A stretch of 64,000 bases of DNA from Pseudomonas phage vB_PaePAO1-KEN19. How positions within the stretch are numbered: the first letter of the stretch is position 1; every line of letters starts with the position of its first letter. Positions 2,201 to 61,503 of this stretch are shown piece by piece. The stretch lies in the sequence record PP456878.1; one strand, given 5' to 3'. The notes below the pieces were generated by a model, which saw only the letters and a program-made list of their open reading frames with translations, made no database searches and had not been told where the DNA came from. Made by a program: the position numbers and the translations under genes.

Positions 2201-4166
<1,966 letters not shown>

Positions 4167-4170
4167 GGTA

Positions 4171-7226
<3,056 letters not shown>

Positions 7227-43058: not shown

Positions 43059-43362
43059 CGTTATGTTCAGGTAAGTTCGCTACGCTTACCCCGCCTCTCG
43101 TATTGCAGGCAGCTGCATGTCACCATGCAGACCAGACTATATCTTAACCTTCACCCTAGGTGGTCAGGTCCCTCCCATTTCCACTCGCTTGAGTGTACTC
43201 CGCGTAACCGGATAGTCGTTGAACGTTCAATCCATTTCTGGAAAGCTTCGCTGCTGATTGTCTCATTGAGATGTCCCAGCAATTAGAGAGGATTTACTTG
43301 ACTCTTTCGAGATCAAGCAGGCAATTTGACAATATCCATTCCTGAGAGATGGATGGATATTA
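43059..43362 (-). mobile_element. group I intron A (ORF-less, about 304 nt) in the RNAP beta gene
   Basis: On the minus strand: P AATTGCTGGGA, Q AATCAGCAGC, R GTTCAACGACTAT, S AAGATATAGTCTGG. The upstream exon stop TAA sits at the intron start. Boundaries are accurate to a few nt. Confidence 0.8.
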
Positions 43363-44559
43363 ATTACCACCATGAAAATCAGTCATCTTGAAAGCACCAG
43401 CAGGCATCTTTTGGGCTTTGTAAGTTACTTCGACTCGCCATTCATCTAGTGGGTCTAGTCGATAGAATCGAGATAGTTTACGGACATTATCAGGTTGAGG
43501 TAGGAACATCTGTGCAGTTACAATAAGACGTTCAAATTCCTCAGTGATATGTAGATCATCTTTACGACGTGCTAATAGACCACGATAGATCTTTAATAGT
43601 TCTCGATAATAACTGCTAAGATGAGTATGATATTTAACTAGTTGTGCATCCATTCCTGTTGGAGTAGGGGATGGATTTACACGCTCATCACGCCAAATAT
43701 CAATATCAATAACCTTCGCACCAGGTGTGCCAATAACAGCTCTATCGAAAGTTCTATCTAGTGTACGAAGTGCCCTAGGAGTCATCTCGGCAGGAGCTAG
43801 ATCATCATCATGGTCACGGATGGCGAAGATTACACCATCTGGTCGGATAACATCGCCAATGTCTGGGAATGGTTTATAGACCTTATCATCGCCATACATG
43901 TTTAAGAAGAAAGCTTTCCTACCAGCATTAGCTACAGCCGTGCTATAACTAGTTGGCATCATCCTTTTAAGGAAATTCTTATTAGCTACGAATCCATCTT
44001 CAATGGTACCAGCGGCAGATAGGAATACAACATTAGCATTAACACCCATCCCTAAAGTACCGTCTTTCTTAACTGCACCAGACTGTGCAATCACTGTGTC
44101 TTTAGAGAACATTTCATTTGGGGCAATGGTTTCCCACACTTCTCGATTCTTTACAAGTTCATAACCAAAGTCTTGGTGATGACTCATGTACTCGGGAACA
44201 TGTAAGACACCAATGGTTTTATATTTGTCAAAATAGTTTTCGTAGATAATAGTTGTTACCGGGTTAGATCTAATACTGTCTTTACCAATACCCGTTGGAT
44301 ATTTTCTAAGAACATGTAGTACACGACAATCCTCAGGAAAACGAACATCATGTGTATACTTGGCATACTCTAATTCAGCACCCGTTAGGAAATAACGCGA
44401 TTCATTTCCATTTACTTCTGGTGCCTGGCCAATATGTGTTACAAACATAGCACCCCGTGCAGATGAGGTAGTGCCATACCAAGGATCTAAACCAGTATGC
44501 CCTAATAGGGTTAGATCAATTTCACGTTTACCTAGTTCAGCCATTTTGTTTATCACCAT
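43363..44559 (-). CDS. RNA polymerase beta C-terminal gene, exon 1 (399 codons)
   Basis: GMGVNANVVFLSAAGTIEDGF resembles beta GxNVLVAFMPWNGYNFED. It ends ...TDFHGGN, the first half of the GRHGNKG motif, which exon 2 completes. Confidence 0.7.
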
Positions 44560-56930: not shown

Positions 56931-56955
56931 CCCCCTACTACATAAATAGTAGGGG
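56931..56955. terminator. hairpin CCCCCTACTA-CATAAA-TAGTAGGGG downstream of beta' exon 3
   Basis: 9-bp stem immediately after the stop at 56967. Confidence 0.5.
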
Positions 56956-56966
56956 TAAGTTTATTA

Positions 56967-57185
56967 TTACGACTTCAACCATTCTTCTAATGGCGGTAAA
57001 TACTTCTCATGCGCCCAGTTAATAATTGTTTCTACAACAGGACCCTGTAATTCAAGGTTACCTGAGATTTCATGTGGTTCATCAATAGATAGAACCCATG
57101 TATGTGGAGCAATGCGTTCAGTTGCTTTGGTTAAATACACATCAGGCATTAACGTTAAATTCAATTGATCGCCGTCAAAATCCGC
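56967..57185 (-). CDS. RNA polymerase beta' N-terminal gene (phiKZ gp55-like), exon 3 (72 codons)
   Basis: Begins GCG GAT TTT GAC GGC GAT CAA, giving ADFDGDQ immediately after the intron 3' end ...CTGAACATAACG. The track ORF 56967..57164 is its alternative-start tail. Confidence 0.7.
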   Translation of the reverse strand, partial: ADFDGDQLNLTLMPDVYLTKATERIAPHTWVLSIDEPHEISGNLELQGPVVETIINWAHEKYLPPLEEWLKS

Positions 57186-57680
57186 CGTTATGTTCAGTAT
57201 GGGTCGTTAATCCATACCCGGTAGTATAATTACCACATGATAATTACCACCTGCTGCATGTCACCATGCAGACCAGACTATATCTTCACCCTTCCTTTCG
57301 GAGTGGGGTGTCTCCCATTTCGAGTCACTTGACCCTACATCCTATTTCTAGGACCGGTGCACCTGATACCGTAATAGTCGTTGAACCTTCTCCTATTCCT
57401 AAATGGAATGTTACGGAGCTTGGCTGCTGATTGGCCCTACCTAATCTTTTTCAAACCTTGGCTTTGTCTTTCGACTCGCAGTGGTAGATTAGTTTAACAG
57501 GATATCCCAGCAATTAGAGAGAACTCACCCCAATGATTACTCACTGGGGGAACTAGACTTGATTAACTTAATAAGGTATTTATCAAGCACTTCATATTCA
57601 ATTTTAAATGAAGCCGGATCAAAGACGGACACTACTCCGTTTTGTTCCATTGTTTTTACCTTATTTAGTTAGTTGTCCAT
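57186..57680 (-). mobile_element. group I intron B (about 495 nt) in the RNAP beta' gene; carries a 37-codon ORF
   Basis: Same P/Q/R/S core as intron A (AATTGCTGGGA, AATCAGCAGC, GTTCAACGACTAT, AAGATATAGTCTGG) with larger peripheral insertions. Confidence 0.75.
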
Positions 57681-57788
57681 TAGGCGCTTTAAGGCATAAT
57701 ACTGACATGCTGATTGAATTATCATTAATGTCATCTTTTACTTTAGTAATAAAGAATTGTTGAGTAGATCCACGTTGAAGGGTCGGCG
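57681..57788 (-). CDS. RNA polymerase beta' N-terminal gene, exon 2 (36-codon micro-exon)
   Basis: Encodes PTLQRGSTQQFFITKVKDDINDNSISMSVLCLKAPN, in frame with exon 1 (...FHRN). It resembles beta' NRAPTLHRLGIQAF...LVCAAYN, which precedes NADFDGD. Confidence 0.65.
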
Positions 57789-58091
57789 TTGTGTTCAGAT
57801 AAGTTCGTTAAGCTTATCCCGTCTATTAATAATAGACAGCTGCATGTCGCCATGCAGACCAGACTATATCTTCACCTTTGGCATTACCCAGTAAGGTGCT
57901 CCCCATTTCGAGTCACTTGACTCTACTCTACTCGGTTCACTTTCGTGCCTTTCGATAGTCGTTGAACGTTCAATCCATTTCTGGAAAGCTTCGCTGCTGA
58001 TTGTCTCATTGAGATGTCCCAGCAATTAAAGGAGTTTTGTCGAGTAATATTTCTATTACAAGGAAACCATTTAGTATTAATATACAAATTA
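57789..58091 (-). mobile_element. group I intron C (ORF-less, about 303 nt) in the RNAP beta' gene
   Basis: The 75-nt core is identical to intron A (ATAGTCGTTGAACGTTCAATCCATTTCTGGAAAGCTTCGCTGCTGATTGTCTCATTGAGATGTCCCAGCAATTA on the plus strand). It ends CTGAACACAACG. Confidence 0.8.
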
Positions 58092-59255
58092 ATTTCGGTG
58101 AAAAGTGCAACCCATTCCTTTATATGGTGCGGCCTCTGCAATTAACTCTTTAAATAGATCAGCGATGATTTGGTTATATTGAAGTACATTCTCATATACA
58201 AATGAGAATGCTTCACGAGTTGTCATGTTAAACTTAGCTTTTAACTTGTTAGTTAGATGATACTTTAATAATTGACAACCTACCCCCCAAGGGATATGTA
58301 GTTCATCATAATCATGCGGGTCACTAATAGAAGTGATTACTGCACGTGCCGTAGCGTTGAGACGAGCACCAAACATGTGACGCCGAGCAAGACCAGGCTT
58401 TTGAGCAATTCGTGATTTTGCGTAGATCTCGTAGAACTGGCCATATAGTCTTAGTCCTCGCATAGTCCTATTCTGAGCTTTAATTGGACTAAGTGGTACA
58501 GATGATGCATCAATACTAGCGAAGGTTAAGGTAGCATCAATTGCTGCTTCAATTGGTTTATCTAAGTAAGTACCAGATGTGGTTGATTCTGCTACGAAAC
58601 AGAGTTTAGAAGGAACTGGTAAATATTTAGGGAATAACTTATCTTTATTCTGAGCAACGAATTGAGCGAATTCGGATTTATTATTAGAGATAATATTTGC
58701 ATCTAGTAGGAATTGGAAGATCTCATTGAAATTATCAATGAAGTGATTTAATCCTCTTTCAAATCCTCGATGCAGTAGCCTATCTACTTTCCTGCGTGTT
58801 TCCTTAGAACCAATAGATTCTACATCGTATCGATAAGAAGTATCAGTTAGATATGCTAAGAAATCGAATTCTTTAGTTACTAGATATCCGGTTAGCATAA
58901 TGATTAAACGTGGGTTAATTAGGCTACGTACATGTTTTGGTGTACGAACCCACATTGATGGTTCGATAGGGCGGCTAGAAGTATTGACAACTGGAGTATT
59001 ACAAATATCACAGATTACTCCGAGTTTATGTGCGTCTTCGATTGCTCGACAATCACAGCTTACACTACTTTCAATTGCTTCTGAATCTTGGAAATGAGAA
59101 TAGAAATGTCTATCAAATTCTTCTTTCTCATCTGAGTTACTCGTATTGTAATCATTGGCATAAATTCGTTTACCCGTAAATTGATCATGAACTTCATTAT
59201 GATCAACAACTTTGGCATAAAGACCCATACCAAACTCCTGTTTATCGATTAACAA
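58092..59255 (-). CDS. RNA polymerase beta' N-terminal gene, exon 1 (388 codons)
   Basis: Zinc-binding CDCRAIEDAHKLGVICDICNTPV. ARRHMFGARLNATARAVIT resembles beta' [33 protein letters not shown] resembles LKLHQCGLPKKMA. The TAA stop lies at the first nts of intron C. Confidence 0.8.
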
Positions 59256-59269
59256 AAAAAGGAGATATA

Positions 59270-59291
59270 AGCGGCCCCCGAAGGAGCCGCT
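59270..59291 (-). terminator. hairpin AGCGGCTCC-TTCG-GGGGCCGCT plus a T-tract on the minus strand, just upstream of the beta' start
   Basis: The minus strand reads stem-loop then TTATATCTCCTTTTTTTG. It ends the roughly 330-nt non-coding stretch after the chimallin-like gene. Confidence 0.55.
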
Positions 59292-59577
59292 ATATCAGTT
59301 TTTACAATGGACCACCAACGGAGCCTGGCCCGAGCCTAGCGTCATCTACAAAGCTTAACCTCCGCTCTTCTTTGTAGCATACCGGCACTAGTCTCATTTA
59401 CCATCCATTGTAGTTTTTGATCACACGTTACCTTTTGAGTAACTCCTTTCGGTTAAGTGATCTATCATCCTCGTGTAGTGATAGGTCGACCTAGACTAAG
59501 TCCACTAGTCGATTACTTCACGGAACCTACTCCTAACCGTTATCACCGAAGTGAACCAGGGTCGCAGTATTAGAATC

Positions 59578-59601
59578 GGGATGTTACTTATTTAACATCC
59601 C
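59578..59601. other. perfect hairpin GGGATGTTA-CTTATT-TAACATCCC right after the chimallin-like stop codon
   Basis: 9-bp stem. Its function is unclear: a 3'-UTR structure or an attenuator. Confidence 0.35.
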
Positions 59602-59622
59602 TATCTACCGAGGTATTTCCTA

Positions 59623-61503
59623 TTAGTACCAGGTACCCGGTGCATTATAGGAAGGAGCGCCGTAAGTTTGACCCATGCTGCCAGCCATGCCAACTTGTGC
59701 ACTACCAGAAACAGCCATGTTACCCATACCGGTGTAACCAGCGAAGCGCTGTTGACCGAAGTTGGTAATTAGGTTTTCCATGGTTACAGTTACACCAGCT
59801 GCTGCTGCTGCGGCATCCATTGCGGTGATGAATTTCGGGTTAAAGGTTAGACGACGAGCACGACCAGTATAGGTAACGTTACCTAGGTACATCTTGTCGA
59901 AGCCTTTACTGTTATTCATACGACGCACAATGTGGTCATTACCTACTTGAGTAGCATACCAGGTCTTCCACTCTTGATCGTTACCTTCAGACATGTTCAT
60001 GGCACCTAGAACGTCAAGATCACGACGGTCACTTAGTTCGCCATGCTCATCAGTGTAGTGACCGAGGTCTACTTCATGATGGTTGTCAAAGATGATCGGA
60101 CCAGCTTCAGCTAGGTTATAGAACTGACGGAAATCAGTGCCATATAGGTTAGTTAGAGCTTGGAAGATCAGGCTAACTGCACGAGCTTGGTTTACGCCAC
60201 CAGCTGCATCTAGGACTACTTGCTCAAGAGCAGAGTTGTCACCCATCGGATCGATATCGATCTGGAATGCAGGGTTCTGGTTAACCATCTTGTTCATTAG
60301 CATTACGAAGTTGCTGTCGTCTGCCATGAATGCTTCGGTGCGAGTTTCAATCGCTTTACCTAGCTCTGAGTAATAACCAAGTGCACCAATATCACGCATC
60401 TTGCTAGTAGCGATCTTCGGCATTAGGGTACGAGCCCATGCCTGGGATGCAGTTGCACGATACGCATTACCGAGTGCGAACAGCCACATTTCTAGAGTCC
60501 ATGCTTGGATCCAGGATGCCTTACGAACGTCAGTGATAACGATGTAAGGAGTGAACTGCGGAGGTAGAGCTGCACCAGGTAGAGTTACGCCAAACATACC
60601 TTGTTGCTGGCCAGTGGTCGGAGTCCAATGTAGATCTACGAATAGACTAACTTGGTTTAGCTGGCTATCGGTATCATAGAACTCGTTCTCAGGTACGTTG
60701 GTTTTCTTACCACGGCTAGTGGAGATAACCAGGTCAGAACGAATCGGATTACCGCAGCTATCTTTAACCGGAATACCATTGTAGTCTAGGTTGCAGGTAA
60801 GCTGTTCGTTTTCTGCTTTGATGTGGGTCGCAATAGAGAACGGAGTCTCATTGTTACGACGTGCGATAGCATCTTCACAGATATTAACAGATTCAACTAG
60901 TAGGTTCTTAACAGCTAGTTCATCTTTGAAGTCGAAGTCAGCATACACTGCACGGGGACCGGCAGATAGTACTTCTAGACCAGGGATGTTGTAACGGTTC
61001 CGTAGGAATTCGCCGATCTTGCTCCAGTATTGAGCAGTGAATACATCACGCGGTAGTACCTTCTCTTCAATGATGTCGTCAGTTAGACCATTGTTGATCT
61101 TGTGGGTACGGGGACGGATGCGAGTACCAGGTAGGTTATCGAGTACTAGTGTACGAACGAATGCCTTCATGGAACCATTGATATCTTTAGCTAGTTTAAC
61201 AATTAGTAGACCAGCCATACCAACTTGTTGCGCATCGCGATCGAAACGATGGATATCGAAATCATCAGGTAGGTCCTGATGGCGGATTGCTTCTTCTTTT
61301 ACTTTAGTGAATACTTGTAGGGCATCTGCTGAACGAGCATCAGAACCATCTAGCCGCCCAGAGCGACGCATTAGATGGTTAATGCCAGTAGTTGACCCAG
61401 GTGCGCCAGCAGGACGTTGAGCTTGACGCTGTGCAGTGGGTTGCGGAGCCGGAGTGGTAGCTTGAGTTTGAACGGTGCCGATTTCGTTTTCGTTAACAGC
61501 CAT
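59623..61503 (-). CDS. chimallin (phage-nucleus shell protein, ChmA)-like early protein, 626 aa
   Basis: Sits immediately upstream of the beta' N-terminal gene, as phiKZ gp54 and gp55 do. Disordered N-terminal ([21 protein letters not shown]) and C-terminal ([20 protein letters not shown]) tails. Early-promoter-like motif about 80 nt upstream. No sequence match to a remembered ChmA sequence was possible. Confidence 0.45.

Follow-up and report, generated by a model that had tools for sequence, protein, structure and literature searches.

Two Group I Introns around a 36-Codon Micro-exon in the Predicted RNA Polymerase beta' Gene of Pseudomonas Phage vB_PaePAO1-KEN19

Introduction

How can one catalytic subunit of an RNA polymerase be produced from a gene that is interrupted twice, the second time next to the codons of its catalytic aspartates? 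This question is raised by the gp55 homolog of Pseudomonas phage vB_PaePAO1-KEN19 (PP456878.1). The window, i.e., the whole stretch of DNA analysed here, comprises 64,000 nucleotides and represents a phiKZ-like Pseudomonas phage (99.3% to PA_ZH1). The gene lies on the minus strand as three exons with two group I introns between them, and by sequence its product is gp55, the beta' N-terminal subunit of the non-virion RNA polymerase (nvRNAP), which bears the DFDGD motif.

Results and Discussion

Gene Architecture and Predicted Spliced Product

The features of the locus, in the order of transcription, are as follows.

58092..59228, minus strand: exon 1, from ATG 59228 to ...TFHRN (PA_ZH1 annotation, 7OGP_A)
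57787..58091, minus strand: intron 1, group I, 305 nt, without ORF; starts with UAA and ends ...AACG
57679..57786, minus strand: micro-exon, 108 nt, 36 codons, PTLQRGSTQQFFITKVKDDINDNSISMSVLCLKAPN, encoding PTLQRGSTQQF...LKAPN
57186..57678, minus strand: intron 2, group I, 493 nt; Rfam 78.2 bits
57537..57650, minus strand: HNH homing-endonuclease remnant within intron 2, 37 codons; the first 18 residues of gp56 followed in frame by its final 17
56967..57185, minus strand: exon 3, the PHIKZ056.1 equivalent, ADFDGDQLNL...EEWLKS and stop codon
56932..56955, minus strand: terminator-like hairpin, 12 nt past the stop codon

The ...TFHRN end of exon 1 runs straight into the stop triplet (TAA) of intron 1, and exon 3 begins with ADFDGDQ. 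A preliminary description of this DNA had read these exon ends and the 36-codon peptide correctly; its micro-exon coordinates, 57681-57788, are 2 nt off and out of frame. Translation likely starts at ATG 59228, which is preceded by an AGGAG ribosome-binding site, and both the PA_ZH1 annotation and 7OGP_A begin with MGLYAK. The mechanical ORF start, TTG 59255, was rejected, since ribosome-binding site, annotations and PDB chain all agree with ATG 59228. The terminator-like hairpin after exon 3 indicates that exons 1-3 form one transcription unit.

Sequence comparison fixes the exact junctions. The insertion points fall between Asn and Pro (FHRN/PTLQ) for intron 1 and between Asn and Ala (KAPN/ADFDGD) for intron 2; the last nucleotide is U in each 5' exon and G in each intron. 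The boundaries of intron 1 are set by intron-less alleles in phiKZ, PA7 and T2P, the micro-exon being contiguous with exon 1 in phiKZ PHIKZ055, and in intron-less PhiPA3-like phages the junction peptide is contiguous across both sites. Removal of both introns restores one uninterrupted, conserved reading frame. The spliced protein computed from the predicted junctions would have 487 aa, a mass of 55.6 kDa and the DFDGD motif starting at residue 417, in agreement with the 56 kDa of native gp55 from infected cells (PMC4666361) and with the published numbering 417-DFDGD-421 (PMC8287921). Over 486 aa it shows 100% identity to 7OGP_A ("PHIKZ055/PHIKZ056.1"), the solved chain of phiKZ gp55. That chain was obtained from a construct whose name describes it as PHIKZ055 fused to PHIKZ056.1, so that its junction is the depositors' choice and not an independent measurement. 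The predicted junction-spanning peptides are NPTLQR for junction 1 and APNADFDGDQLNLTLMPDVYLTK for junction 2 (APNADFDGDQ...).

The NADFDGD motif had been described as complete only after splicing. This holds for its Asn, which, together with the upstream beta-barrel strands, is all that the micro-exon contributes; the three catalytic aspartates that serve as metal ligands, however, are all encoded by exon 3.

Ribozyme Identity and Fold

On the minus strand, Rfam RF00028 matches intron 1 at 57840-58089 (86.3 bits, E 1.3e-20) and intron 2 at 57254-57574 (78.2 bits, E 3.6e-18). The family gathering threshold is 50 bits, and both matches cover model positions 1-253, i.e., the full length. This covariance-model check bears out the earlier assignment of two group I introns to the gene strand, as well as the P, Q, R and S elements reported in each of them. 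The corresponding motifs (AATTGCTGGGA, AATCAGCAGC, GTTCAACGACTAT and AAGATATAGTCTGG) occur in three copies each in the 64 kb, all on the minus strand, with one set per gp55 intron and the third in a paralogous intron near 43.1-43.4 kb. The sequence evidence supports two complete group I ribozymes, both encoded on the strand of the gene. The same ribozyme family scores 75-95 bits with Rfam in all variant loci. In the 59200-59700 spacer, a search with Rfam by E-value yielded just a chance-level match.

In the MFE structure of intron 1, P1 is formed by GAAAU/UA (the slash marking the splice site) paired with UGGUUUC, so that a U-G wobble coincides with the splice site. The P1 that can be proposed for intron 2 is no more than a weak 4-bp helix of UAAU with GUUA, again with a U-G wobble, and it is kept in all variants. 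A second candidate P1 for intron 2, GGAC with GUCU, would place U-A instead of U-G at this position, and in phiKZ it is weakened.

Covariation was assessed in seven family members by MAFFT alignment, RNAalifold and pair counting. In this alignment, 94.6% of the cells are paired, compared with 35-42% when the partners are slid, and both sides have changed in 30 of the 56 pairs (4-9 in the controls); the observed covariation values were reached by 0 of 500 shuffles. P4 and P7 are invariant and thus uninformative on covariation. A further hairpin, helix 8, is conserved between P7 and P3'.

The paralogous intron lies in the nvRNAP beta gene.

43059..43365, minus strand: third group I intron, 307 nt, without ORF; Rfam 84.2 bits; nvRNAP beta gene (gp71/73 homolog)

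This intron and the two in gp55 are members of one family. Both 7OGP_C and relatives without the beta-gene intron place its junction at HGG/KGV. The junction HGGN/KG, in which TAA would be the first intron triplet, is ruled out by 7OGP_C, by the exact length of the intron-less homologs and by the P1 wobble; in the beta gene, the apparent stop codon does not coincide with the splice site.

Loss of the Endonuclease Genes

The deletion history of both introns is evident from alignment with their relatives, whose introns at these sites carry intact HNH_3/NUMOD ORFs. Intron 2 corresponds to the phiKZ gp56 intron minus nt 89-984, i.e., minus 896 nt of the HNH endonuclease gene, removed in frame, with 98.7% identity on either side of the deletion. 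The resulting 37-codon remnant is without HNH and NUMOD domains, and its stop codon sits in the GUAA loop of the P2 hairpin; PA_ZH1 nevertheless labels it 'HNH homing endonuclease'. In intron 1, approximately 889 nt are gone from the P1 loop relative to the HNH-carrying copies. The ORF ends retained after the deletions are exactly those overlapping P1/P2. In its last ~84 nt (P9 region), intron 2 belongs with the other two introns of the window and not with the phiKZ type.

Neither gp55 intron contains an intact endonuclease ORF, and the contrast that the preliminary description drew with the HNH-bearing phiKZ introns is correct. Its statement that both lack such an ORF applies fully to intron 1, which is ORF-free, but passes over the gp56 remnant in intron 2.

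Intron States among phiKZ-like Phages

Across 46 phiKZ-like records, with intron states counted from BLAST spans, intron 1 is absent, short or long, and intron 2 is short, long or replaced by an intron at a third site. Intron 1 is missing from phiKZ and present in about one third of phiKZ-like genomes, with or without an HNH gene. The third insertion site, DFDGD/QLNL, just after DFDGD, is occupied in other relatives. What appeared to be a second intron-less micro-exon and exon 3 in PA7 (JX233784) proved to be the same locus, in which a different intron is inserted past DFDGD, 21 nt further downstream. Almost all possible combinations of states at the three neighbouring sites are found among sequenced phages, including OMKO1 and KTN4, and the double short-intron layout is common to six independent, propagated isolates. 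Two micro-exon haplotypes follow the intron-1 type; presence/absence polymorphism and linked exon haplotypes thus occur together at shared sites among close relatives, as in co-conversion.

The novelty implied by the preliminary description was overstated: apart from its missing endonuclease gene, intron 2 is the gp56 intron known for many years, and the same two-intron layout is present, unannotated, in several GenBank genomes. In every GenBank record examined, the gene is entered as separate 'hypothetical proteins' and the micro-exon is missed, and the beta gene is treated likewise. No description of intron 1 was found in the searchable literature; the KTN4 paper mentions only 'predicted HNH-endonucleases'.

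Proposed Splicing Mechanism and Alternatives

The reading that we favor, with a probability of roughly 0.88, is that two T4 td-like group I introns self-excise from the gp55 transcript and join the three exons into one mRNA. The primary transcript would begin upstream of ATG 59228 and end with the terminator near 56932, and each intron would fold into a P1-P9 ribozyme core. Excision would proceed by two guanosine-initiated transesterifications, with the 5' site after U and the 3' site after the terminal G, yielding a 487-codon mRNA. For intron 1, all support is comparative. As UAA opens intron 1, translation of unspliced RNA would yield only truncated protein without activity. The two introns presumably derive from mobile introns with I-HmuI-like HNH homing endonucleases. 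With these genes since lost from both, they would no longer home on their own and would persist as passengers obliged to splice, while the interruption of the target sites probably shields the gene against endonucleases that co-infecting relatives bring in.

Gene fission without RNA splicing, in which the three pieces would be translated separately and assemble non-covalently, is exceedingly improbable. Jumbo-phage RNAP subunits are naturally split into several polypeptides (PMC7598289), exon 3 is listed by GenBank pipelines as a small CDS of its own, and a long-read phiKZ transcriptome detected no splicing of the introns of gp56, gp72 and gp179 under the conditions used (PMC10914365). However, the micro-exon is without a start codon of its own, an in-frame stop lies 24 nt upstream of both the micro-exon and the DFDGD codons, and the first possible start in exon 3 comes only after DFDGD, so that neither is translatable alone. 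Full group I ribozymes fill exactly the gaps, and the 56 kDa of native gp55 is the spliced size, whereas an exon 1 plus micro-exon product would have 47.4 kDa. It is likewise very unlikely that endonuclease loss damaged the ribozymes and left a pseudogene, or splicing too poor to matter, even though ~890 nt were removed from the P1/P2 region of each intron and P1 of intron 2 is weakly defined. The nvRNAP is required for middle and late transcription, the exon-encoded protein retains its complete identity to phiKZ gp55, and the six isolates sharing the layout are propagated. Moreover, the deletions spared precisely the ORF ends that overlap P1/P2, the core keeps its 98.7% identity to that of phiKZ, and compensatory changes are seen across the family.

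Splicing in vivo that depends on a phage or host RNA chaperone or maturase appears unlikely, and would refine the main explanation rather than compete with it. Such a need matters because nucleus-forming phages keep transcription apart from translation, and it is translation that assists the folding of T4 introns. The splicing of T4 introns depends on pre-mRNA translation (Sandegren and Sjoberg 2007, as cited in PMC10914365), transcription and translation are uncoupled in phiKZ-like phages (PMC12908238), and one phiKZ data set revealed no splicing (PMC10914365). Against this, all core elements are present, and the closest relatives, T4 td-type introns, are well known to self-splice in vitro; from this we infer that self-splicing without helper proteins is the expected behavior. 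For the phiKZ introns, protein-level support for splicing stands against one transcriptome without spliced reads. The short, endonuclease-free introns described here are the easiest substrates for settling splicing and folding in the ribosome-free phage nucleus.

Self-excision of both introns leaves room for a more tentative idea on why they persist. The three sites FHRN/PTLQ, KAPN/ADFD and DFDGD/QLNL, within 129 nt that include the DFDGD catalytic loop, may form a battleground of competing HNH-intron lineages, in which mini-introns persist by interrupting the targets. If so, the gene would be immune to attack by endonucleases from co-infecting relatives, in analogy with the conflict between PhiPA3 gp210 and phiKZ. 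The cost would be that middle and late transcription hangs on three ribozyme reactions, two for beta' and one for beta, which would run in the ribosome-free phage nucleus. The variety of intron states in therapeutic-candidate phages (OMKO1, KTN4) offers a natural system for intron-endonuclease competition and immunity.

Comparison with Known Systems

An intron between PHIKZ055 and PHIKZ056.1, the phiKZ gp56 intron, was reportedly predicted by Mesyanzhinov et al. in 2002. Intron 2 shares with it the gene, the site KAPN/ADFDGD and the spliced protein, but lacks the 896 nt of HNH/NUMOD endonuclease gene and differs in its P9-region type. At the site of intron 1, FHRN/PTLQ, KTN4, ANB1, GUMS, SL2, OMKO1 and fnug carry copies with a 273-277-aa HNH_3 ORF in the P1 loop, which is absent from KEN19. 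Outside the ORF, the GUMS copy is 97% identical to KEN19 intron 1, whereas the KTN4-type intron is only 82-85% identical and resides in a different exon haplotype.

Intron 1 also resembles the T4 td intron, with which it shares the P/Q/R/S core and a UAA start just after the 5' splice site. The ~76% nucleotide identity to T4-like td introns over the 3' 140 nt, in the 3' half, and the extra P7-P3' hairpin would be compatible with subgroup IA2. The host gene (thymidylate synthase) and the phage family differ, and the td intron carries the GIY-YIG endonuclease I-TevI in a different loop.

The PhiPA3 gp210 intron, whose HNH endonuclease has a demonstrated competitive effect (Birkholz et al. 2024, PMC11620839), is likewise a group I intron at the catalytic residues of a chimallivirus RNAP gene and is polymorphic between co-infecting relatives. 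It differs in lying in the virion RNAP beta gene, i.e., in another subunit and at another site, and in its active endonuclease, of which the gp55 introns have none. Several group I introns per essential phage gene, some without endonuclease, are also known from Twort nrdE (two introns, as cited in PMC12908238) and from the Bastillevirinae (PMC11878797), systems likened here by description only. Unlike these, which involve other genes and hosts, the gp55 introns are paralogs and lie on either side of a 36-codon exon, at an RNA polymerase active site.

Exon–Intron Organization of gp55

The region is 99.3% identical to that of Pseudomonas phage PA_ZH1 and 94–99% identical to about 45 other Phikzvirus genomes. 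The split gene, on the minus strand, is the homolog of PHIKZ055 (gp55), the β′ N-terminal subunit of the non-virion RNA polymerase (nvRNAP), which bears the DFDGD magnesium-binding loop (PMC4666361; PMC8287921); it adjoins the gene for the nuclear-shell protein (PHIKZ054 homolog). Terminator-like hairpins are located 3′ of the gp55 stop codon (56955–56932) and 5′ of its ribosome-binding site, therefore exons 1–3 constitute one transcription unit.

Features of the window
59228–58092, minus strand: exon 1
58091–57787, minus strand: intron 1, 305 nt
57786–57679, minus strand: micro-exon, 108 nt
57678–57186, minus strand: intron 2, 493 nt
57185–56967, minus strand: exon 3
43059–43365, minus strand: third group I intron, 307 nt, no ORF, splitting the nvRNAP β gene (gp71/73 homolog)

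The intervening sequences are group I ribozymes. As proposed in the preliminary description, both lie on the gene strand: the Rfam group I model is matched over its whole length at 57840–58089 (86.3 bits) and 57254–57574 (78.2 bits), minus strand. The four core motifs named there have exactly three copies each across the 64 kb, all on the minus strand: one set per intron, the third set belonging to the paralogous intron near 43.1–43.4 kb. The pieces also translate to the peptides predicted, but the micro-exon coordinates proposed with them, 57681–57788, are out of frame and are corrected here to 57679–57786. Both 5′ exons terminate in AAU and introns 1 and 2 both terminate in AACG.

The two introns (57787–58091 and 57186–57678) are direct repeats flanking the micro-exon, with 85% identity over 89 nt and identical stretches of about 24 nt; a recombination event joining them would remove the micro-exon and should be lethal. 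Between the stop codon of the PHIKZ054 homolog and gp55, the minus strand carries a non-coding stretch of about 330 nt that is GC-richer and strongly structured (59262–59622; fold z-score −3.5); its 3′ end is a strong terminator-like hairpin with a U-run directly before the gp55 ribosome-binding site. This spacer has no match in Rfam and may represent either a non-coding RNA or an extended 3′ UTR.

Junctions and Predicted Spliced Product

The exon junctions are exact. Exon 1 and the micro-exon form a single continuous ORF in phiKZ, PA7 and T2P, which fixes junction 1 (FHRN|PTLQ) to the nucleotide. Junction 2 (KAPN|ADFDGD) can slide by 1 nt with the mRNA unchanged; it is placed as listed because only there does U precede the 5′ splice site and G the 3′ splice site. 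The whole junction peptide is encoded in one piece in PhiPA3-like, 201phi2-1-like and more distant chimalliviruses. Joined, the three exons encode 487 residues (55.6 kDa) with DFDGD at residue 417; structure papers number this motif 417–421 (PMC8287921), and the nvRNAP purified from phiKZ-infected cells includes gp55 at 56 kDa (PMC4666361). Over 486 residues this product shows no difference from PDB chain 7OGP_A (100% identity), which its depositors named PHIKZ055 plus PHIKZ056.1, a fusion spanning the phiKZ intron. Furthermore, an in-frame stop lies 24 nt upstream of the micro-exon and another 24 nt upstream of the DFDGD codons, and DFDGD has no start codon before it, indicating that neither segment is expressible alone.

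The pre-mRNA would self-splice by the standard guanosine-initiated pathway to give the gp55 mRNA; without splicing, the UAA opening intron 1 would end translation. Counting against this, splicing of the gp56, gp72 and gp179 introns left no reads in one long-read transcriptome of phiKZ (PMC10914365). However, the native size of gp55, together with the fused gp71-73 subunit in polymerase purified from phiKZ-infected cells (PMC4666361), argues that splicing does occur. For introns in gp55 and gp180, a later paper from this field (PMC11512511) refers to earlier RNA-seq work.

RNA Structure

Seven introns were aligned for covariation: the three of the window, GUMS intron 1, KTN4 intron 1, phiKZ intron 2 and the PS119XW intron. 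The RNAalifold consensus recovers P3, P4, P5, P6, P8, P9, P9.1 and P9.2, to which canonical P7 was added before pair counting. Standard pairs occupy 94.6% of cells, versus 35–42% with partners slid by 1–3 columns, and both sides change in 30 of 56 pairs, versus 4–9 after sliding; the observed values were not reached in any of 500 shuffles. P4 and P7, being invariant across the seven members, are uninformative. In the minimum-energy fold of the 5′ exon and intron start, intron 1 P1 pairs GAAAU|UA with UGGUUUC, placing the splice-site U in a U-G wobble, and is followed by P2, a hairpin with a GAAA loop. For intron 2, only a 4-bp UAAU/GUUA helix, kept in all variants, can be proposed as P1, which is the weakest point of the anatomy.

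The third intron is paralogous to intron 1 (79% identity over 255 nt), and in phiKZ the same β-gene intron houses PHIKZ072. A start at the TAA after ...HGGN is rejected. The solved chain 7OGP_C reads DFHGG-KGV, the junction peptide spans exactly 204 nt in intron-less relatives and 204 + 307 nt in phiKZ-like genomes, and the predicted P1 has its U-G wobble after GGU; the intron is therefore 43059–43365, with junction HGG|KGV lying 3 nt before the apparent stop codon. The earlier rule, by which an intron opens with the stop codon as its first triplet, holds for intron 1 and fails for the third intron.

Origin and Distribution of the Introns

By alignment, intron 2 is the phiKZ gp56 intron: its nt 8–83 and 89–409 match phiKZ nt 12–88 and 985–1305 at 98.7% identity, the gap corresponding to a loss of 896 nt. 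The endonuclease remnant is a 37-codon in-frame fusion of the first 18 and last 17 residues of a 334-residue HNH/NUMOD protein. Its last codons extend into sequence 5′ of P2, and the P2 hairpin loop (GUAA) contains its UAA stop; exactly these ORF ends plausibly survived because they overlap ribozyme structure. The deletion junction is common to all short forms examined (window, PA_ZH1, GUMS, T2P), which points to a single origin of short intron 2.

phiKZ lacks intron 1. The GUMS copy measures 1194 nt, with a 277-residue HNH_3 ORF inserted in the P1 loop, about 20 nt from the intron start, and is 97% identical to that of the window when the ORF is left out. The KTN4 and ANB1 forms are more divergent (82–85% identity, 1244 nt, 273-residue ORF). 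The alignments show that introns 1 and 2 derive by deletion from endonuclease-bearing mobile introns.

Forty-six phiKZ-like records were typed by BLAST with the spliced coding sequence as query, and the introns prove polymorphic among close relatives. Record counts are approximate, since intron lengths are read from match spans.

Approximate BLAST typing of gp55 introns by length
Both short: the window and 6 records (PA_ZH1, PaZh_1, PhiPizzaParty, AttikonH10, Bobae, kmuB)
Intron 1 long, intron 2 short: GUMS, Churi, SL2
Intron 1 absent, intron 2 short: 6 records (T2P group, Koomba 1, 30-1)
Intron 1 absent, intron 2 long: about 18 records, phiKZ among them
Both long: KTN4, ANB1, OMKO1, fMGyn-Pae01
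Intron 1 short, intron 2 long: LC, KEN49

By these spans, gp55 is interrupted by at least one intron in every Phikzvirus record among the 46. Introns 1 and 2 are both missing from PA7 (JX233784), Brmt, W10-2 and probably MRostami-2023c, where a different group I intron follows DFDGD| (site 3), 21 nt downstream of site 2. Its I-HmuI-like HNH ORF has 345 residues in the PA7 type and 345–366 across phiKZ-like phages. Intron 1 and the site-3 intron occur together in fnug, and in another genus, Pawinskivirus (PS119XW, phiLBG22), the site-3 intron lacks an endonuclease gene. The gene thus has three insertion sites inside a 129-nt stretch.

Regions compared in sequence extracts from relatives
Site-3 intron, PA7 JX233784 (L006): 1020–2575
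Site-3 intron, fnug (L011): about 5000–6550
Site-3 intron, PS119XW (L010): 1553–1950
P9 tails: window 57186–57270 versus phiKZ (L007) 3975–4040 and the KTN4 (L008) intron 1 tail

The introns are mosaic: the P9 tail of window intron 2 is of the type of window introns 1 and 3, and that of phiKZ intron 2 is of the KTN4 intron 1 type. Likewise, window introns 1 and 3 have the P6 hairpin in common, and the P6 of GUMS intron 1 differs and is compensated. These elements appear to have been swapped among the paralogous introns within a genome, a pattern suggestive of gene conversion. The micro-exon exists in two synonymous haplotypes, each tracking an intron-1 type. T2P (L005) and its close relatives carry the intron-linked haplotype yet have no intron 1, and their junction reads AAC versus AAU in other alleles; this allele may reflect precise intron loss or be cleavage-resistant.

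Having lost their endonucleases, the introns would no longer be able to home. Because they interrupt the recognition sites, the mini-introns probably shield gp55 from endonucleases of co-infecting relatives.

Relation to Known Systems

The gp56 intron was predicted in 2002, as cited in PMC10914365, and spliced gp55 is the protein in all structural work (PMC8287921; 7OGP). GenBank records label the gp55 pieces as unrelated small proteins, and no description of intron 1, the micro-exon layout, the endonuclease-less forms or the three-site cluster was found in the searchable literature. It is established that RNAP genes of chimalliviruses carry group I introns at catalytic sites and that the endonucleases of these introns act as weapons between co-infecting phages (PMC11620839; PMC12908238). 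The td introns of T4-like phages are the nearest well-studied relatives, matching window intron 1 at about 76% identity over its 3′ 140 nt.
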